Shown here: positions 3,221 to 40,704 of the stretch, one piece after another | How positions within the stretch are numbered: position 1 is the stretch's first letter | How the letters are laid out: each line of letters begins with the position of its first letter | Origin: Patescibacteria group bacterium | GTDB lineage: Bacteria; Patescibacteriota; Patescibacteriia; UBA9570; JAHJKD01 | Length of the DNA: 64,000 bases | NCBI GenBank assembly: GCA_041660885.1 | Contig: JBAZVM010000005.1 | Location: forward strand, 23,568 to 87,567 | Reading direction: 5' to 3' | Position numbers and translations under genes: made by a program | Notes under the pieces: generated by a model | Told to the model about the DNA's origin: nothing | Databases searched by the model: none | What the model saw: the letters and a program-made list of their open reading frames with translations, nothing else

Positions 3221-3867
3221 TGGCTATTGCTTTTTTTGATATCGATCACACCATTGTTTCTTCCATTTCCGCGGAAAAAATATTTTTTTCTTATCTGACC
3301 AAAAAAAGAAGAATTCCGTTAATTAATTATTTTCGCGTGGCAACGTTTTTTTTAGAAAATATTTTATTCAATCCATATAAAGCGACGCTGCAAAACAAAC
3401 AATATTTAGCTAATCAAAATAAAGACGAAGTTATAAAATGGGGCAAAGAATGTTTTTACGCAGAAATAAAAAAGAAAATGCCAAAAAGCGCCCTCCTAGC
3501 CGTTACCGCGCATAAAAAGAAAGGTGATAAAATTATTTTATTAAGCGGCAATTTATTTTTTCTGGCGGAATTAATAAAGGATTATGTTGGCGCCGACGAT
3601 ATCGTTTGCACGCAACTTGAAACCAAAGAAAATTTATTTACCGGGAAAATCATTGGTTTGCATGCTTATAAAGAAGCAAAGAGAACTCTACTTAAAGAGT
3701 ATATTAAAAAGCATCACTTAGAAAAACAAGAAATATATTGTTATGCCAACAGTATAGCGGATCTGCCCTTTTTGGAATGCGCTGATCATCCCATTGCCGT
3801 CAATCCCTCCTGGCATTTAAAAAAAGAAGCGTTAGCGCGTAATTGGCCTGTGGTTTTTTACACTTAA
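3220..3867 (+). CDS. HAD-IB family hydrolase/phosphatase
   Basis: N-terminal FFDIDHTIV (DxDxT nucleophile motif), 215 aa. Start overlaps the upstream stop (TAATG). Confidence 0.8.
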   Translation: MAIAFFDIDHTIVSSISAEKIFFSYLTKKRRIPLINYFRVATFFLENILFNPYKATLQNKQYLANQNKDEVIKWGKECFYAEIKKKMPKSALLAVTAHKKKGDKIILLSGNLFFLAELIKDYVGADDIVCTQLETKENLFTGKIIGLHAYKEAKRTLLKEYIKKHHLEKQEIYCYANSIADLPFLECADHPIAVNPSWHLKKEALARNWPVVFYT

Positions 3868-29598: not shown

Positions 29599-32493
29599 CT
29601 ATTTTGCCGCCATGTCTGCTTCTTCTTCACCTTTTGAGCGATAGCGAGGTATAGAATCCGGATTAATATTTTTTGCTTTTTCTAAAATACGCGCGCTCCA
29701 TTGTTTGGATAAAGATGCCACAGGCGTTTCAGCATCAGGCCGGTCAAAAGTGAATAATCCCAATTCCCCTTTCTCGTTCATTTTAAAAATATAGCTGCCT
29801 AATTTCTCTTTAGGAAGACCTTTTTTGGCATTTTGCGGCATAAGCGGCAATTCAGATAGCAACGCGTTTTTAATTTCTTTATTTCTTATATCCGCGGTTA
29901 ATTCTTCTTCCATGCCCATAACTACGGCCGGTTCAGCTTCAGTACCAATATCATCTTTTCTCTCGGCTCCAGTATTCCGTGCTACCGGCGAAGTAAATCT
30001 TTTAGTCGGTTCTTTGTCAGCCGCTTGTACTTGTTCCGGCGTCATACCCCCGCCATCCGATCCATCATCGTCCAACGATTGATCCTTTTCAGGTTCAGGT
30101 ACGCCAGTATCAACGGTTTCTGTACCAGCTTCAGTAACAGGCTTAACTTCGGCAGATGCTTCCATTACAGGTCTTTCTTGAAGTGCTTCTGGTTTTGTAT
30201 TTTTAGCTTCAGAAAGCGCAAAAGATATATTATGAGTTTCGGCATTAATATTTTTTGCATTTAATGTTTCCACAACTTGGCTGGCAAGTTCATTTTCCCG
30301 CTGTCCATAAGCTTTTAGCTGGTTGTCATCTGGCGTGGCTTTATTTTGTTCAGATACTCTTTGTTTTTTTACATCTTCCATTTTCGCGGCCAGGGGGTAT
30401 ATCTTATTCAATGATACCGTTAAAGCTCGGCCTTCAGCTCGAAACCAATCTGTAAGTTGTTTTTGTGCTTCCAAATAACGAGCATCTTGCACTTCCTGCG
30501 ATTCATTTTCCGGCCGGCCGGCTTGCTCCCACATTTCATAAGCTCTTTTTTTAATTAATTCTCCGCTGTCTAATTCCTTTTTGCCTTCAAGGTGTTTATC
30601 TATTTTCTGATGGAATTGGGCAAAAGAAGCTTCCACTTGAGCACGTAAATCGGCATTGCTTTCATGGATCGAATCCATCAACTCATTTCTGACTCTTACG
30701 CTTTGCAAAATTGTAGTTACTTCAACTGTATTCCTATATTCTTCATATTTTTTATTATTTTCAATTATCCTTAAAGCGTGTTCCCGCTCATTCTTATCAG
30801 TGATAGACTCAATTATCCTTAAAGCTTTTTTTTCATTACCCCTCATGGCACAAAGAACCGCTATAGTACCAATATTTCGTTGAGCTCTTTTTTCGTCTTT
30901 GGTTCGAGCGATTTCTAAAGCTTTATCCACGTCTCCCGAAGCGACGACTTCCTCAATAATATAACGGATGGCGATGTGTCTGTCTGTTTCATCTGTTATC
31001 TCTTGGCTACTTTTCAAGGCTTCATCTAAATTTCCATTCTCTTTGAATTTATCACGAATAGACTGAGCCTGCCATTTTGTTTCTTCTGGCACTTCTTCAT
31101 CCTGCGGCGGGTAAGGAGGAAAATCCGGGTGCCCTTCTGCGAAAGCAGGCTTTGGAGGGGTTGCTTGCTCTACCGCTTCTGAATTACTAGTATTGCGGCC
31201 CTCCTTGATAGCGCCTGTAACAGCGTCCATATCTATATTGCTGAAAAATTTACCAGGATTCCAAGCAGGCTCTTCTGCTTGCACATCTTCTTTTTTTTGG
31301 GATTGTGTGTCAGGTATTTCAAACTGTTGGGCGTTAACGGCCGCATTAAAATCCTCTTTTGGCAAAATACTGGCAATGGGCACTCTATCCTGGCCGTCTA
31401 TCTGCATTGGCTTTCCCTCTTCATCAACAATACTTATAGTGCCATCATCAAACATTTCGCCTATTTTCGCTTTCACTGTTTTACCTTCAACGGAAAGTTT
31501 CAAAGGTTGCCCTTCTCTTATCGTTGGCGCTTGGAAACGCTCGTTTTTAACATTGGCGCGCATACCATCCATAGTTCGTAATTTGGAAAAAAGCTCCATT
31601 TTTCTTTCCATTTTTTTTAATTTATCGCCAGTTCCAAAAGTTAAAGAAGTGGGTTGCGTTTCCATGCTTGTCATTAGTGCCTCGGCTTCCGGTCCACCGG
31701 CATATAAAGTGCGCATATCTTCTCTGGATAATCCTAATTCTTTTTGAATATCTGCCAATACTTGTTCTCTTTCGCTTTCCACGGTTTTTAAATTTTCCTG
31801 CTGGTTACGATAAAAAGCTTCCTCATGAGGAGAGGAAGTTGTGTCCGGACGATTAACAGTATTTCTTCTGCCAATTTCCATGGAAACGTCATCAAACTGC
31901 TTCTTCAACATTTCTAATTTTGCTTGTTCCTCACTATTCAAATTAAGCTCCACTTCATGAGGCAAATTAATGTCTATATCCGGTCTATTCTCTCTTCGCG
32001 CCAAATCATTCATTGCTTGCTTAGCACTTTCATATATATTATTTAAAGATTCTCTATCATATCTGCTATAATCAACAGATTCTCCGGTTTCGGATTGTCC
32101 TGCTTGAAAAAAAGCTTCAGCCGCTTCTTGTGCTGCTTTAGTTTCTTGATATTCTTTTTGTGGTTCCGCGGGAGTTGCCGTTTCTTGACGACTAAAAAAA
32201 CTTTTCAAAGCTGCTCTAACGGATTCTCCGGCTCGTTTTAACATAGCCCTAAAATCTTTTACCTCTTCAACTTCTTCCTCTTGTAAACTTCCATCACCTT
32301 CTATACTTTTGCCAGTTATATCTGCTTGTTCTCCTAAAAGATTTATTTGGCTTTCCGCTGCTGCTGCTTCTTCTCCAGGAGTTAGCGGTTTTGGTGTCTT
32401 CTCTACTGAAGCGCCTTCGCCTTCTTGATTATCTGTTTGTTTATATCCTAATCTATTTTCTGGAGATATTACATTCATATTTTTTGAATTCAA
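29599..32493 (-). CDS. large acidic, low-complexity/coiled-coil protein (964 aa)
   Basis: No signal peptide, very E/D/Q/K rich. Internal segment KRAYEMWEQAGRPENESQEVQDARYLEAQKQL resembles the DUF2934 motif. Helical-repeat stretch DKALEIAR...KKALRIIESI...EHALRIIEN. Confidence 0.75.
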   Translation of the reverse strand: MNSKNMNVISPENRLGYKQTDNQEGEGASVEKTPKPLTPGEEAAAAESQINLLGEQADITGKSIEGDGSLQEEEVEEVKDFRAMLKRAGESVRAALKSFFSRQETATPAEPQKEYQETKAAQEAAEAFFQAGQSETGESVDYSRYDRESLNNIYESAKQAMNDLARRENRPDIDINLPHEVELNLNSEEQAKLEMLKKQFDDVSMEIGRRNTVNRPDTTSSPHEEAFYRNQQENLKTVESEREQVLADIQKELGLSREDMRTLYAGGPEAEALMTSMETQPTSLTFGTGDKLKKMERKMELFSKLRTMDGMRANVKNERFQAPTIREGQPLKLSVEGKTVKAKIGEMFDDGTISIVDEEGKPMQIDGQDRVPIASILPKEDFNAAVNAQQFEIPDTQSQKKEDVQAEEPAWNPGKFFSNIDMDAVTGAIKEGRNTSNSEAVEQATPPKPAFAEGHPDFPPYPPQDEEVPEETKWQAQSIRDKFKENGNLDEALKSSQEITDETDRHIAIRYIIEEVVASGDVDKALEIARTKDEKRAQRNIGTIAVLCAMRGNEKKALRIIESITDKNEREHALRIIENNKKYEEYRNTVEVTTILQSVRVRNELMDSIHESNADLRAQVEASFAQFHQKIDKHLEGKKELDSGELIKKRAYEMWEQAGRPENESQEVQDARYLEAQKQLTDWFRAEGRALTVSLNKIYPLAAKMEDVKKQRVSEQNKATPDDNQLKAYGQRENELASQVVETLNAKNINAETHNISFALSEAKNTKPEALQERPVMEASAEVKPVTEAGTETVDTGVPEPEKDQSLDDDGSDGGGMTPEQVQAADKEPTKRFTSPVARNTGAERKDDIGTEAEPAVVMGMEEELTADIRNKEIKNALLSELPLMPQNAKKGLPKEKLGSYIFKMNEKGELGLFTFDRPDAETPVASLSKQWSARILEKAKNINPDSIPRYRSKGEEEADMAAK

Positions 32494-33246: not shown

Positions 33247-33630
33247 GGGGATGTTTATAATCGATAGAAGACGTTCCTTAATAATCTTCCAAGCCAAGCG
33301 CCGGACTTGTAAACTGGCAAATTATAAGTGCAAACTTATTCAATTCAGCTAAGGAAAAAGTGAGAGCTTTCGCTCAAAGCTTTGCTTTAGCTCCTTCTGT
33401 CGCCTAATTCGCGACAGCATCCGATTTTCTTTCGCCTCAAAGGAAAAACCCGGGTGTAAAAATCGAGGCTTATTTCCGGTTTTGCCTAGAATCGGATTGA
33501 AATCATCAGGCTCGGCTTTATAATTTTTCGTTTGTTTTCAAGTTATAAAGCTTAAATATTAAGCAAAATACGCTTGGTAAACGATTATTCTGGTTTCTTC
33601 TAGACGCGGGCGTAATACCCGCCATCTCCA
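33247..33630 (+). ncRNA. ssrA: tmRNA (SsrA)
   Basis: 5' GGGGATG pairs with 3' CATCTCC (33623..33629), including a G3:U wobble. T-arm GCGGG-cgtaata-CCCGC, discriminator A at 33630, CCA not encoded. Internal tag frame GCA AAC ... GCC TAA (33330..33407). Immediately follows smpB. Confidence 0.85.
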
Positions 33631-33678
33631 CACGAACTTATCTAAAAACAAATTTCAAATAATAAAAGCGAGTTAATA

Positions 33679-35791: not shown

Positions 35792-35870
35792 GGGGGCGTA
35801 GCTCAGTTTTGGTTAGAGCGTCGCACTGTCACTGCGAAGGTCGCGGGTTCGAGTCCCGTCGCTCCCGCCA
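35792..35870 (+). tRNA. tRNA-Asp (GTC)
   Basis: Manual fold: acceptor GGGGGCG/CGCTCCC, D-arm GCTC..GAGC, anticodon stem TCGCA/TGCGA with loop CTGTCAC, T-arm GCGGG-TTCGAGT-CCCGT, discriminator G. CCA is encoded. Confidence 0.9.
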
Positions 35871-35875
35871 TTTAT

Positions 35876-37408
35876 ATGGCCATAAAAAAAGTTGTTCTAT
35901 TATCCATCTTTGTTCTATTATTTTCATTTAGCGCGCGAGCGGAAACCGCCACCAATTGGCCGGTAGATTTTGCTAATCCCCAAACTTTGTTAAGCTCGGC
36001 TTTTGGCCCGCGCTTAAAAGCATCGGAAGATTACCGCTACGATTATCATCGCGGCATAGACATTCCCGGTGAAACCACGGATGAAGCCATATCCATTAAA
36101 GACGGTACGGTTTACCGCATTTACGCGGAAGGAGACCCGGATTCCACTTACCCCAACAGCGGCAATATCGTTATCGTGAAACACCAATTTGATGAGCCCT
36201 ATTCTTTCCATGGCATATCGCATACTATTTATTATTCTTTATACGCGCATTTATCTAGCTTTGCCGAGGGCTTGGAAGAAGGAGACACGGTTACAGCCGG
36301 CCAAACCGTGGGCTATATCGGTAAAAGCGGAACAACCGATTTTTTGCATCTTCATTTTGAAATACGCGTGGGCACCACTTGCTCCATGGAAATTGAATGC
36401 AACCATGGATACGACCCGCATATTAATCCCTTGAATTTTTTACCTTATACGCAAGAAAACGAAGCCACAGGATCGGCTAGCGTCAGCGGTGCGGATGTTC
36501 TTACTTCCATAACTATTCCATACGATGAGTTAGATTTAAATTCTTTTCGCGTGCGCACTTATAACAGCAATGACACGCTCTTGCAAAACAAACTGCTAAA
36601 TTTCGACACAAGAGAAGGTTCAGACCCCTCCTCTGATGAAACGCTAGACCAGCAAGAATATAATAATATTTATATTGATCCGGAAATTTTTACTTCATCA
36701 AGCGAAGAGGAAACCATGAATGTCACTTTTGAAAATACTATTTTTGATAATGTGCGAAGAGTTAATATACAAATAAAAGATATAAACGGTAATACCTTGT
36801 TCAGTGATGATATATATATTAGTTCCGAAGGGGTAGTAGTGGAAGAACCGGAGCCAGAACCTGATCCGTATGATCCGGAAAACGGAGAAACCGATCCTTT
36901 ATACGGAATTATTACGAATATAGATAAACAAGAAGAAAATCTATTAATCACCTATGAAGACGGCACCGAGCATATTATTACTCCGTTTATCAATAACGCG
37001 GATTTTGCATACCAATTAAGCACGGATAAATATCGTTTGCTGACAACCAACGGTAAATTTATCCGCGTATTTAAAAACAGCGTAAAGGTAGACCAAAAAA
37101 AAATACATAAAAAATATTTGCCAAAACGATCATATAAAATGAAAGTGGCTAATTTTTATTCCGCATACGATAATGTTATTTTCGCTAGCAAAAAACAAAC
37201 AACGGGAAAAATTGCCGTCTTTCGTTTGGATAGCGCAGACCAACTGATAAAAAGACAAATTAGAAACACTTTATTTCATCTGGGAAAGCTGAATCGACTT
37301 AAAATTATTCTGGATAAAAAAAGATTTAAAGTTATCGTGCGAAAAAATCATTTAAATTACAATTACGTTTGGCGTATTCGCGCTAATGGCACGCTAATAA
37401 AAAAATAA
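35876..37408 (+). CDS. secreted M23 (LytM-type) peptidase with Lys-rich C-terminal module
   Basis: Signal peptide. YHRGIDI and FLHLHFEI metal-binding motifs. The C-terminal 156 aa are homologous to the tail of the 17837..20056 product. Confidence 0.85.
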   Translation: MAIKKVVLLSIFVLLFSFSARAETATNWPVDFANPQTLLSSAFGPRLKASEDYRYDYHRGIDIPGETTDEAISIKDGTVYRIYAEGDPDSTYPNSGNIVIVKHQFDEPYSFHGISHTIYYSLYAHLSSFAEGLEEGDTVTAGQTVGYIGKSGTTDFLHLHFEIRVGTTCSMEIECNHGYDPHINPLNFLPYTQENEATGSASVSGADVLTSITIPYDELDLNSFRVRTYNSNDTLLQNKLLNFDTREGSDPSSDETLDQQEYNNIYIDPEIFTSSSEEETMNVTFENTIFDNVRRVNIQIKDINGNTLFSDDIYISSEGVVVEEPEPEPDPYDPENGETDPLYGIITNIDKQEENLLITYEDGTEHIITPFINNADFAYQLSTDKYRLLTTNGKFIRVFKNSVKVDQKKIHKKYLPKRSYKMKVANFYSAYDNVIFASKKQTTGKIAVFRLDSADQLIKRQIRNTLFHLGKLNRLKIILDKKRFKVIVRKNHLNYNYVWRIRANGTLIKK

Positions 37409-37409
37409 T

Positions 37410-38093
37410 ATGTGCGGAAGATACTCGTTAATATCCTCGCTAAACGAATTAAAAGAGCGTTTTAACGTAAAAAAAGTTTCCGGCCAATTAACGCCGAGAT
37501 ATAATGCCGCGCCCAGCCAGCAACTACCTTTAATCGCGGGCGATGCCCCACAAAGAATTGTGCTAGCTGAATGGGGCATTATTCCTGCTTGGATGAAAGA
37601 CGAAAAAAGTATAAAGCGCCTGATCAACGCCAAAGCCGAGACTATAGCGGAAAAACGTACCTTTAAGCAAGCCGCGGAAAAAAGAAGGTGCTTAATAATT
37701 GCTGACGGCTTTTACGAATGGGCTGAAATTCCGGGCACCAAAAAAAAGCAGCCTTTTCGCCTTACCCTGAAAAACAACTCCCCTTTTGCAATGGCCGGAA
37801 TTTATGAATTAAAAAAAGATAAAAATAAACAATATATGGAGTTTGCCATTATTACGGTCTCGGCCAATGCTTTAATGGCTAAAATTCATAATCGCATGCC
37901 CGCTATTCTGCTACCCGAAGATGAAAAACGCTGACTTGATCCAAATACTACCATCAAGCAAGCCCTCACTTCTTTAAAGCCATATCCGGCCAATAAAATG
38001 AAGGCTCTGCCGGTTTCTAATCTGGTAAATTCCCCTGCCAACGAAGGCCCGAGTGTGATAAAAACGCTGGATACTTTGCCTATTTTTAAGTAG
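37410..38093 (+). pseudogene. SOS-response-associated peptidase (SRAP/YedK) interrupted by an in-frame TGA
   Basis: MCGRYSL N-terminus (catalytic Cys2), INAKAET, FYEW. The frame stops at TGA 37932..37934 (..LLPEDEKR*) and continues in the same frame with LDPNTTIKQALTSLKPYPANKMKALPVSNLVNSPANEGP..., the normal SRAP C-terminus, to TAG 38091..38093. Confidence 0.75.
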
Positions 38094-39306
38094 CCTGCCC
38101 CAAACAAGGCAAGCCGATAAACTGTCTTTCTTTTTTTTGTTTTTCCATTACCGGCAAACTGCTTCCCAAAAAAACAATATGCTTGCCGTATTTTTGGCTG
38201 AGGTCATCCACGGCTTCGTAAACCCGCCCTATTTTTTCTATGGTCAACGGTTTTTCAAATAAATTCATTTGCAAGCTAAAACGCGATTGCAAAGAAAAAA
38301 TCACTACTCCCGTGGCGCGGTAAACAAAAGAAGAGGAAAACAATTTTAAAAAAGCTTGCTTAGCCGGGCCCATGGCTTCATTGGGAAAACAAGTGGCGCG
38401 ATTAAAGCGTACTTCCATGGTGCGGTAGCGGAAATCATTCGTTTTTAAAAAAATCATCATTTTTTTGGCTGCCAGATTATGGCGCCGCGCTTTAATAAAG
38501 GCGTTTTCCACGTTCTTGGAAAGCTGGGCAAAAACATATTGAGCCTCGGAAGAAGGCGGAGAAAAAGTTTTGGTTTTGCCAATGCTTTTATATTCGTCTT
38601 TTTCTTGAGTGGAAACCTGATAAACTCTTTCCTCGTTAAGCTCGCGCCATATTTCTTTGTATGGCTTGCTTAATTTTTTATCGATAAAATCTTCCGAAGC
38701 CTGGGCGTATTGCCAGGCGTTGTAAACACGGAACTTATTTAAATAAGCCGCGGTTTGCCGGCCAATGCCCCAAAGATCTTCCAAGCTCGTCTTTTTTAAA
38801 AAGTCCGGACGGTTATAATAAGAAATTTCCGTAAAGCCTGATGGTTTTTTCCACTTGGAAGCTATTTTTGTCAGCACTTTAGTGCTGGCCAAACCAACGG
38901 AAACCGTTATGCCCAGCTCCTTTTCTATGGCGTTTTTAACGCTTATGGCGATTTGAGCGTAGCTTTTGTGCAAAGGACGGCGTAAACCCGTTATATCGGC
39001 AAAAGCTTCGTCTATGGAGTATTCTTCCACTTGCGAAGTATAGCGTCTTAGAATATCAAACATGCGTTTGGAAAATAAGCTGTATGTTTCATAGTGCGAG
39101 GGCAGAATAATGGCCTCGGGGCATATTTTTTTTACATCCCAAAGCGGCACTCCCCTTTTGATGCCTAATTTTTTGGCTTCGTAGCTGGCCGCGGAAACTA
39201 TCTTTCGCTCGAGCCCGGTGACGACGGGTTTACCGCGATACGCCGGATTTATAGCTTGCTCGCAAGAAGCGAAAAAAGCATCGGCATCTACATGGATTAA
39301 AGGCAT
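38086..39306 (-). CDS. Y-family translesion DNA polymerase, UmuC/Pol V-like
   Basis: MPLIHVDADAFFASCEQ and EEYSIDEAFADITG resemble UmuC (FYASCE, YSIDEAFCDLTG). 406 aa. Starts 3 nt after the lexA stop. Confidence 0.88.
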   Translation of the reverse strand: MPLIHVDADAFFASCEQAINPAYRGKPVVTGLERKIVSAASYEAKKLGIKRGVPLWDVKKICPEAIILPSHYETYSLFSKRMFDILRRYTSQVEEYSIDEAFADITGLRRPLHKSYAQIAISVKNAIEKELGITVSVGLASTKVLTKIASKWKKPSGFTEISYYNRPDFLKKTSLEDLWGIGRQTAAYLNKFRVYNAWQYAQASEDFIDKKLSKPYKEIWRELNEERVYQVSTQEKDEYKSIGKTKTFSPPSSEAQYVFAQLSKNVENAFIKARRHNLAAKKMMIFLKTNDFRYRTMEVRFNRATCFPNEAMGPAKQAFLKLFSSSFVYRATGVVIFSLQSRFSLQMNLFEKPLTIEKIGRVYEAVDDLSQKYGKHIVFLGSSLPVMEKQKKERQFIGLPCLGQAT

Positions 39307-39309
39307 AAA

Positions 39310-39882
39310 TTAATATTTTCTTACCACGCCAACCACCACGCCGCCCAATAATAAATTATTTTTGGGGTAAATGGGCTTGAATTTCGGATTCTCGGGCAGA
39401 AGAGCTATTTTCTTTTCGGTTTTATATAATCGTTTAATGGTCCATTCGTTGTCTATGCTGGCGATAATAATATCCCCGTGCTTAGCCTCCTTGCCGCGTT
39501 CCACTATTACCAGATCCCCGGGCCTGATGCCGGCGTTAATCATGGAATTGCCGGATACCTTCAATAAAAAAGAGGCTTGCTTATTTTTAATGAGATAGTC
39601 GTCTAAGCTGATGGCGTCGGCCAATTCTTCTTCCGCGGGCGTGGGAAAGCCGGCTTCTATGTTCCCCAATATTTTTACGCCAAATAAAGAAGCCGCGGGC
39701 ATTAAACGGCCGGCTTCATCTTTATTTATAAATCCCGCTTCTATGATTTTATTTATAAAACGAAAAACAGCGTTTTTAGACTTTACCTTAAACAAAACAA
39801 GCATTTCCGCGTAAGACGGCAAACGCTTGTTTTTTTCGTAAAATTGGCGCAAAACCAAAATTCTTTTATGCAGTTTATCCAT
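39310..39882 (-). CDS. lexA: LexA-family repressor (wHTH plus S24 peptidase)
   Basis: N-terminal wHTH-like region, putative cleavage site EAG/FP, VSGNSMINAGIRPGDLVIVE (Ser) and EWTIKRL (Lys). Start moved to MDKLHKRIL (ATG 39882) because the promoter lies inside the longer track ORF. Confidence 0.85.
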   Translation of the reverse strand: MDKLHKRILVLRQFYEKNKRLPSYAEMLVLFKVKSKNAVFRFINKIIEAGFINKDEAGRLMPAASLFGVKILGNIEAGFPTPAEEELADAISLDDYLIKNKQASFLLKVSGNSMINAGIRPGDLVIVERGKEAKHGDIIIASIDNEWTIKRLYKTEKKIALLPENPKFKPIYPKNNLLLGGVVVGVVRKY

Positions 39883-39888
39883 GGAGAC

Positions 39889-39918
39889 ATTATAAGTGAA
39901 CGAACGTTCACTTGTCAA
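39889..39918 (-). promoter_or_regulatory. lexA promoter with embedded SOS (Cheo-type) box
   Basis: Minus strand reads TTGACA (39918..39913), AGTGAACGTTCGTTCACT (39912..39895), TATAAT (39894..39889), gtctcc, ATG. The spacer holds GAAC-N4-GTTC within a 7+7 perfect inverted repeat. Confidence 0.75.
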
Positions 39919-39940
39919 CCCCGTACCGAATGGTGCGGGG
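39919..39940 (-). terminator. hairpin after the 144-aa gene
   Basis: Minus strand reads CCCCGCACC-attc-GGTACGGGG (9-bp stem, one mismatch). No T-run; abuts the lexA -35 box. Confidence 0.3.
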
Positions 39941-39962
39941 TCAAATGTCCCCTATTTACCTA

Positions 39963-40397
39963 TTAAGCTATAGGATAATTATTTTCTTGCAAACTTTGGG
40001 CAATGGCCTTTTTTTGGAAAAATCCGGCAAAACGGTATACTTCGTTGGTTTTAGTGGTAAACTCAAGGCCTAAAAAATTCTTTTTTACGCCGGTGATATC
40101 TGTTTTATTGATAATGCGATACATAGGATATTTTCTTAATTTATTCTGCGTTTCCGGGCTTAATGAATTAAAATCCGGTTCTTTGGAAATATCTTGCACC
40201 TCTTCTTTTTTCTTCTGCAATCCGGTGATAGCCGCACCGACCGCGGCGCCCACAATGCCGCCAACCGCTCCGCCGACTCTTACGTTCGGGTCATCTTTAA
40301 CTCCGGTAAAATAAATTTTATCGGGATTAATTAGAATCAAACCGTCCATGTAAGTTTTGTTGTTGAAGGCCACCCTTCCTCTTTTTAAAAATTCCAT
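39963..40397 (-). CDS. hypothetical protein with glycine-zipper segment
   Basis: VGGAVGGIVGAAVGAAITG motif. 144 aa. Confidence 0.6.
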   Translation of the reverse strand: MEFLKRGRVAFNNKTYMDGLILINPDKIYFTGVKDDPNVRVGGAVGGIVGAAVGAAITGLQKKKEEVQDISKEPDFNSLSPETQNKLRKYPMYRIINKTDITGVKKNFLGLEFTTKTNEVYRFAGFFQKKAIAQSLQENNYPIA

Positions 40398-40410
40398 AGT
40401 TTTTTGTTGA

Positions 40411-40704
40411 TTAATTATTTAAAAAATAATAAGCCAAATAAACTAACCCGGCTTGTATGAATAATACCAAAAAAAGCCAAAATTGAAAAGAAATCTTCTT
40501 TGTTTTATGGCGAAAAAAATACATGGCGGCTAAGGCTCCCGGGCTTCCGAAAAATAAAGCCAAAAGCAACAAAGCTTTTTCCGAAATCCGCCGAGAATTG
40601 GCTGACGCCGAAGTTTTATCTAAACCATAGACGCAAAAAACCGCGATATTATAAATACCTAGTATAAGCAGAATCCAATGAATATATGTGAGGTCGCTTA
40701 GCAT
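40411..40704 (-). CDS. DUF1294 membrane protein
   Basis: VFCVYGLDKTSASANSRRISEKALLLLALFFGSPGALAAMYFFRHKTKK. Start trimmed to ATG 40704, 4 nt after the efp stop. Confidence 0.75.
   Translation of the reverse strand: MLSDLTYIHWILLILGIYNIAVFCVYGLDKTSASANSRRISEKALLLLALFFGSPGALAAMYFFRHKTKKISFQFWLFLVLFIQAGLVYLAYYFLNN

Follow-up and report, generated by a model that had tools for sequence, protein, structure and literature searches.

A lexA–polymerase SOS operon in a Patescibacteria genome and a possible second role of its repressor as a UmuD'-like polymerase partner

A 64,000-nucleotide stretch from a Patescibacteria group bacterium (contig JBAZVM010000005.1, positions 23,568 to 87,567; called the window below and numbered from its first letter) carries a lexA gene immediately followed by a gene for a Y-family DNA polymerase, here named polY. 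The pair is certainly a self-repressed two-gene SOS operon, ordinary in kind. Comparison with its relatives raises a further possibility, namely that this one LexA serves both as the SOS repressor and, once cleaved, as a UmuD'-like partner of the polymerase. This dual role is supported by comparative evidence and by a precedent in another group of bacteria, and is unproven; we offer it as a tentative reading that falls a little short of probable.

The mechanism would run as follows. RecA filaments on damaged DNA would trigger cleavage of LexA between Ala77 and Gly78, upon which the repressor would release its operator and lexA and polY would be expressed in fixed proportion; both steps are modelled on the LexA paradigm. 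The freed C-terminal dimer (Gly78-Tyr190), which would start with a UmuD'-like arm of the GFPSPA type, would then attach to the polymerase, probably via the C-terminal tail of PolY, and serve as a UmuD'-like subunit with an accessory or regulatory function. This last step is the uncertain one, and is drawn from the comparative evidence. RecA would bind a motif adjoining the same tail. One gene would in this way provide both the switch and the polymerase partner, as in UmuDAb of Acinetobacter. If so, a single cleavage would couple destruction of the repressor to activation of the polymerase, a very economical arrangement for small genomes.

The lexA–polY operon

The elements of the operon are given below by window coordinates.

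39310..39882, minus strand: lexA, 190 residues plus stop, encoding a LexA-family repressor of a distinct 'AGFPSPAEEEL' subfamily
39682..39882, minus strand: winged helix-turn-helix of LexA (residues 1-67), as predicted by AlphaFold2 (AF2)
39649..39654, minus strand: predicted self-cleavage site Ala77-Gly78; the new N-terminus would be GFPTPAEEEL, which is UmuD'-like
39313..39651, minus strand: S24 peptidase/dimerisation domain of LexA (residues 78-190), with Ser113 at 39544-39546 and Lys150 at 39433-39435
39307..39309, minus strand: lexA–polY spacer of 3 nt (TTT); the two genes share a reading frame
38086..39306, minus strand: polY, 406 residues plus stop, Y-family, with predicted catalytic residues D7, D9, D99 and E100
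39889..39918, minus strand: lexA promoter, with -35 TTGACA (39918-39913), an 18-nt spacer and -10 TATAAT (39894-39889)
39898..39909, no strand assigned: SOS (LexA) box GAACGTTCGTTC, a GAAC-N4-GTTC palindrome inside the promoter spacer

A preliminary description of this DNA had reported a 190-residue LexA, a 3-nt gap and a 406-residue Y-family polymerase, with which the coordinates of the open reading frames and the Pfam IMS match agree. The lexA frame runs on the minus strand from an ATG at 39882 to a stop codon at 39310-39312, and the polY frame (39306-38086, same strand) starts 3 nt past that stop (TAA TTT ATG), a spacing that suggests translational coupling of the two genes. No separate umuD had been seen in the window, and tblastn with E. 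coli UmuD, LexA, UmuC and DinB indeed detects no further gene of the S24 or Y family anywhere in the 64 kb. A search of the window for the Walker-A signature of recA found none.

The lexA promoter is the sole 12/12 match to the sigma-70 consensus within 37300-40500. Because the lexA ATG sits only 6 nt past the -10 hexamer, the message is probably leaderless. The GAACGTTCGTTC box is the single exact GAAC-N4-GTTC match of the window; one such box per 64 kb is not significant alone, the chance expectation being 0.5. Of 80 orthologous loci in other species, 61 have an exact box in the 160 nt 5' of lexA, and 72 have one with no more than a single mismatch, where by our estimate about 0.003 per locus would be expected by chance. 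Judged by sequence, the box in its own promoter marks lexA as autoregulated, with an SOS box of the Gram-positive type. The spacing of -35, SOS box, -10 and ATG found in the window (39882-39918) reappears upstream of the S24 genes at three metagenomic loci, L090 (3965-4003), L091 and L092, to which we return below.

The protein is LexA-type overall, and its composition of a winged helix and an S24 self-cleaving domain is strongly supported by sequence matches and by the structural model. It passes the LexA model TIGR00498 with 133.1 bits (cut-off 110.95). Since the classical LexAs reach about 290 bits (289.5 for E. coli and 297.5 for B. subtilis LexA), the window protein is a divergent member of that family. 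Peptidase_S24 of Pfam matches with 104.6 bits, and Pfam LexA_DNA_bind (PF01726) gave no match on the protein. The AF2 model places a domain of three helices and a beta-hairpin at the N-terminus (helices 3-18, 24-30 and 36-48, strands 52-54 and 60-62) with a predicted local distance difference test score (pLDDT) of about 90. The top Foldseek matches of the model are full-length LexA structures (3jso, 3k2z and 8trg; E 1e-13 to 5e-12), and the alignment to LexA-DNA and LexA-RecA structures spans both LexA domains. Because the upstream box is conserved and the structural matches are to LexA and its winged helix, we take lexA to encode a real autoregulated LexA. The sequence is 100% identical to an NCBI Patescibacteria entry named 'transcriptional repressor LexA'. 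Three further contigs of independent origin also encode an identical LexA and, as far as they extend into polY, an identical polymerase.

The LexA segment quoted in the preliminary description is present, with the predicted cleavage site at A77-G78. A77, G78, P80, A83, E84 and E85 are invariant in 36 homologues, as are the putative catalytic residues S113 and K150. The consensus of the subfamily reads ...LGTVEA/GFPSPAEEELxDTxSLDDYLI...VVRKY (slash, cleavage site), and 'a distinct LexA subfamily' is a fair summary of what the sequences of the 'AGFPSPAEEEL' LexAs suggest.

The S24 domain as neighbour of the polymerase

The association of this LexA with polY is widespread. A LexA-centred scan of species-representative genomes, a set without the window's own genome, matched more than 570 species, of which the best 80 were analysed. 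These come from Nitrospirota, WOR-3, Planctomycetota, Omnitrophota, Verrucomicrobiota, Patescibacteria and others. In 71 of the 80 loci a member of the polY family stands 3' of lexA in the same orientation, and in 45 of those it begins within about 105 nt of lexA, too close for a further gene to fit between. When metagenome contigs were scanned with the polymerase instead, 61 loci were informative. The gene immediately 5' of the polymerase encodes a full-length LexA of the window type in 44 of them and an S24 protein with a short or different N-terminus in five; the remaining 12 have no S24 gene upstream within the available sequence (up to 3 kb). As read from these gene orders, it is the S24 domain, rather than the DNA-binding domain, that is the constant neighbour of the polY family. 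The polymerase profile found no matches on the viral contigs scanned; there is no sign of a phage-borne cassette.

The labels of some of these loci differ from their gene content. A 385-kb contig labelled 'Candidatus Bathyarchaeia archaeon' (L071, DATKWK010000017.1) carries a bacterial-type lexA-polymerase pair, which points to mis-binning or to transfer into an archaeon. Several close relatives (L004 and L005) are labelled 'uncultured Gammaproteobacteria' despite having genes closest to those of Patescibacteria. There are also S24 proteins of the same clade with other N-termini. Those of L172 (around 1750-2290), P0137 and P0145 have about 180-194 residues and an N-terminal region (...ENVSAAPALCQV...) that is unlike the LexA winged helix and, by its sequence, may be a different domain. 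At L148, where the upstream S24 protein likewise has a non-LexA N-terminus, weak matches to the LexA N-terminal domain (E about 0.01-0.09) lie 3' of the polymerase (3308-3427).

The evidence that carries the proposed dual role comes from relatives that have lost the DNA-binding half. UmuD-sized S24 proteins of the window clade, all without the N-terminal domain, are encoded directly 5' of a polY-family gene in the P0171 clade, P0135 (at L093), P0159 (at L094), L106 and L165. The P0171 clade comprises L090, L091, L092 and the P0390 contig. Its four protein clusters have 126-139 residues, share about 85% identity among themselves and 80% with the C-terminal half of full-length LexAs from Patescibacteria, and occur in at least three different upstream contexts, with the polymerase starting 1-2 nt past the S24 stop. 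L090, L091 and L092 each have an exact SOS box within a TTGACT...TACACT promoter. For this one domain-loss clade, with DNA for three members, we computed the ratio of nonsynonymous to synonymous substitution rates (dN/dS). The pairwise values are 0.04-0.05, with synonymous sites near saturation (proportion of synonymous differences, pS, 0.67-0.76).

A tblastn search with ten N-terminal-domain queries upstream of all the short S24 genes gave no match, where control loci gave E values of 1e-16 to 1e-28. The short proteins are 80, 64, 64, 78 and 47% identical to their nearest full-length LexA, and at most 62% identical to other short ones. Since every short form has its nearest kin among the full-length LexAs and not among the other short forms, the N-terminal domain has been lost independently at least four to five times. 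Four of the five short forms keep the Ala-Gly site and the Ser/Lys dyad behind an arm of 13-20 residues, which is the architecture of UmuD. The fifth, at L165 (229-585), lacks the catalytic Ser (GTNAL in place of GDSM); its frame is still open, and an SRAP gene lies divergent to it. Two other short S24 matches, P0133 and P0150, are uninformative, their contigs being 0.5 kb long.

At L093 (1-1001; Logan SRR21412972) three genes stand in a row on a contig truncated on either side: the end of a B. subtilis-type LexA S24 domain (49% identity), 3 nt later the 126-residue short S24 gene, and about 170 nt further on the polymerase. One polymerase is thus preceded by two different S24 genes, which is the gene order of a lexA-umuD-polymerase operon.

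A remnant of a pure regulator should decay once DNA binding is lost, and here it has been retained repeatedly, a pattern that speaks for an independent function of the S24 domain next to polY. Because the loss recurred, this function probably existed already in the full-length LexA, as far as the sequences tell. A broader proposal goes beyond the window, namely that the 'AGFPSPAEEEL' subfamily is truly bifunctional across phyla, that the PolY tail docks on the cleaved dimer, and that the subfamily is a living example of the stage at which loss of the DNA-binding domain gives rise to stand-alone UmuD-type subunits. We advance it with more hesitation, as a possible reading about which some doubt is in order. 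If it is true, present genomes would reveal, through the recurrent loss of this domain, how UmuD could have evolved from LexA.

The S24 half resembles UmuD in several respects. The whole protein scores 121.8 bits on the NCBIfam UmuD model NF007621 and so passes its cut-off of 110; the S24 domain alone scores 120.4 bits on it and 110.1 on the LexA model. In the same test E. coli LexA reaches 85.4 bits and B. subtilis LexA 70.7, against 163.3 for E. coli UmuD and 152-170 for four other UmuDs. The B. subtilis LexA sequence used is validated by its 297.5 bits on TIGR00498. All of five further members of the subfamily score like the window LexA. BLASTP aligns the window LexA to E. coli UmuD with 39.7% identity over 116 residues, and the S24 half is 55% identical to P0142, a 165-residue UmuD whose gene overlaps a DUF4113-bearing UmuC gene in a umuDC operon. 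Ten consensus positions are common to the window clade and the UmuDs alone, among them F79, S81 and P82 of the GFPSP arm.

The S24 tree is a neighbour-joining (NJ) tree of 115 columns, a simple method on a short domain, with a sample picked by similarity to the query. Six classical LexA domains split from all others in 92.5% of its bootstraps. The window domain is thus not nested within LexAs of the E. coli/B. subtilis type, a point that the preliminary description had left for a phylogeny to decide. In a quartet, the window domain and UmuD separate from E. coli and B. subtilis LexA in 84% of NJ bootstraps. The architecture is not that of a stand-alone UmuD, in that a 75-residue winged-helix domain precedes the cleavage site. 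A fair summary, as far as these sequence comparisons go, is that the S24 domain stands midway between classical LexA and UmuD, and that it shares with the latter the N-terminal sequence that UmuD exposes after cleavage.

The C-terminal part of the polymerase has three elements that are conserved in its family.

38257..38271, minus strand: beta-clamp-binding motif QMNLF (PolY residues 346-350), assigned from the known consensus (PMC6511836)
38161..38244, minus strand: RecA-N-terminus-like motif IEKIGRVYEAVDDLSQKYGKHIVFLG (residues 355-382), conserved in the family; the concept is from PMC6511836
38089..38160, minus strand: C-terminal tail (residues 383-406), delimited by alignment of 65 orthologues

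Pfam identifies the protein through IMS (157.6 bits) and IMS_C (44.7 bits), with a match to IMS_HHH as well, and the AF2 model has a mean pLDDT of 85.9. Across 47 homologues D7, D9 and E100 are invariant and D99 is nearly so, and Q346 and F350 of the clamp motif are also invariant; the motif is kept as Qx(x)LF in the 65 loci. The RecA-N-terminus-like motif has the family consensus IEKMxRIYxAVDxLSxKFGKHTV, and AF2 predicts helices at residues 355-389. Members of the family typically have 430-440 residues and a tail of about 45, which ends in RQRLGLPxLxIKV or, in Patescibacteria, in (I/L)P(F/Y)LGxxV. The last 14 residues of the window PolY have a pLDDT below 50 and are predicted to be disordered when modelled in isolation. 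We also considered the C-terminus of PolY as a mimic of the LexA strand that precedes the cleavage site (R-x-LG...). The likeness is loose, short and one residue out of register, and we set it aside as a mere lead.

Competing readings and the state of the locus

Several observations weigh against the dual role. The S24 half is equidistant from its possible kin, with 41% identity to E. coli LexA, 39% to B. subtilis LexA and 40% to E. coli UmuD over the 115 columns; the two LexA domains are themselves just 37% identical. Eight consensus positions are common to the window clade and the classical LexAs alone, and the window clade and the UmuDs are monophyletic in 3% of NJ bootstraps. The description of the C-terminal half as UmuD-like thus stands by its score on the UmuD model (121.8 bits) and its 39.7% identity to UmuD, and needs the qualification that the half is equally close to LexA domains; going by sequence, the resemblance is real, not exclusive. 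The GFPSPA arm may be conserved for self-cleavage alone. The short S24 genes adjoin polY by descent, and their position is not independent evidence. LexA fragments are quickly degraded in E. coli. The window PolY is the shortest of the 65 orthologues and is without the usual terminal motif: its tail has some 25-30 residues fewer than that of the family, the middle of the tail being lost, and a similarly short tail occurs in the close relative L004. This short tail and the interrupted SRAP gene discussed below are mild reasons for caution about the window genome.

The class of the polymerase weighs in the same direction. The label 'UmuC-like' that it had been given does not hold. On the UmuC model NF002955 PolY reaches 142.5 bits and fails the cut-off of 431, and DUF4113 gives no significant match (E = 0.072 over 21 residues, where E. 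coli UmuC scores 78 bits); the weak match is that of IEKIGRVYEAVDDLSQKYGKHIVFLG to the first 24 positions of the domain. The motifs on which the label was based, FFASCEQ (residues 11-17) and YSIDEAFADITG (residues 96-107), are present. They recur near-unchanged as FFASIEQ and SIDEAY in the best sequence match of PolY in the PDB, a Pol IV of 384 residues. PolY scores best on the NCBIfam Pol IV models (216-224 bits), of which NF002492 gives 224.1 bits (cut-off 399) and NF002677 gives 216.2 (cut-off 256), both below threshold. BLASTP identity is 31% to E. coli DinB and 27% to UmuC. By sequence, PolY is closest to Pol IV/DinB, yet it lies outside every curated NCBIfam equivalog; NCBI annotates it as 'DNA polymerase IV'. 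Enzymes of the Pol IV type function without an obligatory subunit.

The strongest competing explanation is that LexA is purely regulatory, repressing its own operon and probably the wider SOS regulon, and that the polymerase acts alone, like Pol IV. The likeness to UmuD would then reflect a slowly evolving or ancestral S24 domain from which UmuD also descends, and the locus would be one more of the ordinary autoregulated lexA-polymerase operons that have been catalogued before. This is a serious possibility, although we rather doubt it. Every hallmark of LexA is present, the S24 domain is equidistant from LexA and UmuD, the polymerase scores best as a Pol IV, and the NCBI names pair LexA with DNA polymerase IV. 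Neighbourhoods of LexA and DinB, some with SRAP, and lexA-imuB-C-polY operons are known as regulatory units (PMC3765255, PMC6511836). What a regulator alone leaves unexplained is an intact S24 gene before polY in at least five lineages without the DNA-binding domain, under the low dN/dS found in one clade. It also leaves unexplained the row of lexA, short S24 gene and polymerase at L093, and the conserved tail past the RecA-like motif in loci of which most have no other accessory gene.

Another conceivable reading is a second role of the S24 domain other than polymerase binding. The free domain or the short proteins could heterodimerise with LexA or compete for RecA filaments, and so tune the SOS response as a feedback. 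LexA and UmuD are known to dimerise through the S24 domain, the short genes carry an SOS box and would be co-induced with the response, and purifying selection shows a function, not its kind. At L093, however, the neighbouring LexA is of another, B. subtilis-like type, and heterodimers are less likely there because the two S24 domains differ in type; moreover, the short protein of L165 is kept despite the loss of its catalytic Ser. To our knowledge, every characterised stand-alone S24 protein encoded beside a Y-family polymerase (UmuD, MucA and RumA) is a subunit of that polymerase. We regard the feedback role as improbable.

That the window holds merely a decaying copy of the module with no special function, as the stop codon in place of a conserved SRAP tryptophan and the 25-30 residues missing from the shortest PolY might suggest, is very improbable, since the lexA and polY frames are unbroken and keep every catalytic and invariant residue, the promoter and the SOS box match their consensus in full, the same LexA (and, where covered, the same polymerase) stands on three further independent contigs, and L004 has a similarly short tail.

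The SRAP gene lies convergent to the operon and consists of two parts.

37410..37934, plus strand: SRAP (YedK-like) gene, 174 residues to an in-frame TGA at 37932-37934
37935..38093, plus strand: in-frame continuation of 52 codons to a TAG at 38091-38093, which aligns to the C-terminal part of SRAP relatives

The read-through product begins with MCGRYS and matches Pfam SRAP (PF02586) across the whole model with 225.9 bits. The TGA replaces a Trp that is kept in five relatives (...KKWLD..., ...LWLDP...), and the 174-residue call is also made in an independent Logan assembly. Genetic codes 4 and 25 were considered as an explanation of the TGA and rejected: the long open reading frames are intact under table 11, and six of 43 end in TGA. 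To judge by the sequence, the TGA is for that reason a nonsense mutation of recent date, or else a leaky UGA that is decoded as Trp. The reported 8-nt overlap of the SRAP gene with the 3' end of polY (38086-38093) accordingly exists only if the TGA at 37932-37934 is read through; under the standard code SRAP ends 152 nt before the polymerase. An SRAP gene lies within the locus in 7 of 80 LexA-centred and 14 of 80 polY-centred loci.

On the other side of the operon, directly 5' of the lexA promoter, a 144-residue open reading frame on the minus strand (39963-40397) has a Gly/Ala-rich hydrophobic stretch and no Pfam match, and a GC-rich hairpin lies between it and the promoter (about 39922-39943). 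A transfer-messenger RNA (tmRNA) gene (33247-33633, 102 bits) and a tRNA gene (35792-35867) lie a few kb from the operon. A 964-residue open reading frame (29599-32493) is essentially without Pfam match, and near it are large predicted surface proteins, namely an NHL/TIG protein of 788 residues, an Ig-like protein of 739, a DUF11 protein of 643 and a beta-propeller protein of 655.

Comparison with known systems

Canonical LexA, as in E. coli and B. subtilis, shares with the window protein the winged helix and S24 domain, the Ala-Gly site, the Ser/Lys dyad and an operator in its own promoter, which in the window is the Gram-positive-type GAAC-N4-GTTC. The window protein differs in its score on the LexA model (133 against about 290 bits), in having no LexA_DNA_bind match and in passing the UmuD cut-off. 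The arm after the cleavage site is GEPLLA in E. coli and GSPITA in B. subtilis, whereas GFPSPAEEEL is invariant in the window subfamily; moreover, the window type is almost always co-transcribed with a Y-family polymerase.

Gene clusters of LexA with DinB, in some cases with SRAP or ImuB-C, and the lexA-imuB-C-polY operons of Geobacter resemble the window locus in that lexA is co-transcribed with an active Y-family polymerase, often with SRAP nearby (PMC3765255, PMC6511836). The order of lexA and polymerase genes is therefore not new, having been described already in these papers. In contrast to the Geobacter operons, loci of the window type mostly have no ImuB-C and no small gene between lexA and polY, and the LexA of Geobacter uses a different operator (PMC8565304). 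The RecA-like motif has been described before, as have conserved tails that act as partner-binding sites in non-UmuC polymerases (PMC6511836). Gram-positive bacteria have a pairing of YolD with YqjW/UvrX, where YolD is the proposed counterpart of UmuD and the polymerase, again not a UmuC, has a RecA-like motif and a conserved tail (PMC6511836). YolD, however, is not an S24 peptidase and undergoes no self-cleavage, and no YolD-like gene lies at the window locus.

In UmuD/UmuC (Pol V), and likewise in MucAB and RumAB, an S24 gene lies directly 5' of a Y-family polymerase gene, and the same GFPSPA comes after the cleavage site. The polymerase likewise combines a clamp motif and a RecA-N-terminus-like motif with a conserved tail at the C-terminus (PMC6511836, PMC11791011), and the relatives of the window LexA without the N-terminal domain have, like UmuD, an arm of 13-20 residues before the Ala-Gly site. 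In structural models of Pol V the key contacts are two: the final residues of UmuC form an additional strand on UmuD', their carboxylate lying at its Ser/Lys site, and the conserved N-terminal (GFPSPA) arm of UmuD' touches the polymerase close to the active site (PMC11791011). The window differs in that its S24 protein bears a 75-residue DNA-binding domain and in that PolY is Pol IV-like, has no DUF4113 and ends in a tail unrelated in sequence to that of UmuC. If the proposal is true, multi-subunit mutasomes like Pol V extend beyond the UmuC enzymes and are common in uncultivated phyla, where they are annotated as 'LexA + Pol IV'.

Within the papers that our search covered, we found no proposal of a C-terminal LexA fragment as a polymerase subunit. 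By analogy, the concept of a combined repressor and partner is one with a precedent in UmuDAb. This protein of A. baumannii (UmuD1389, 203 residues, cleaved at A83-G84) is a LexA-like repressor, and its cleaved form together with UmuC2015 gave the highest mutagenesis induced by methyl methanesulfonate (MMS) in E. coli (PMC13062779). UmuDAb and the window LexA are alike in being single S24 proteins of about 200 residues with a cleavage site near residue 80, in which SOS repression by the N-terminal part is combined, in UmuDAb, with mutagenesis with UmuC after cleavage (PMC13062779, PMC4807011). UmuDAb differs in that it needs the co-repressor DdrR and an atypical operator, is confined to Moraxellaceae, a family without LexA, and has as its partners true UmuCs whose genes lie elsewhere. 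The window protein, by contrast, is of the winged-helix LexA type, has a classical box, occurs in many phyla and stands in an operon with a Pol IV-like enzyme. UmuDAb belongs to the UmuD clade; proteins of its size, such as P0183 with 164 bits on NF007621, fall among the UmuDs in the tree, apart from the window clade. The window LexA is thus no member of the UmuDAb type, though it may work likewise. Were it to do so, the result obtained with UmuDAb would be widened from Moraxellaceae to many phyla.

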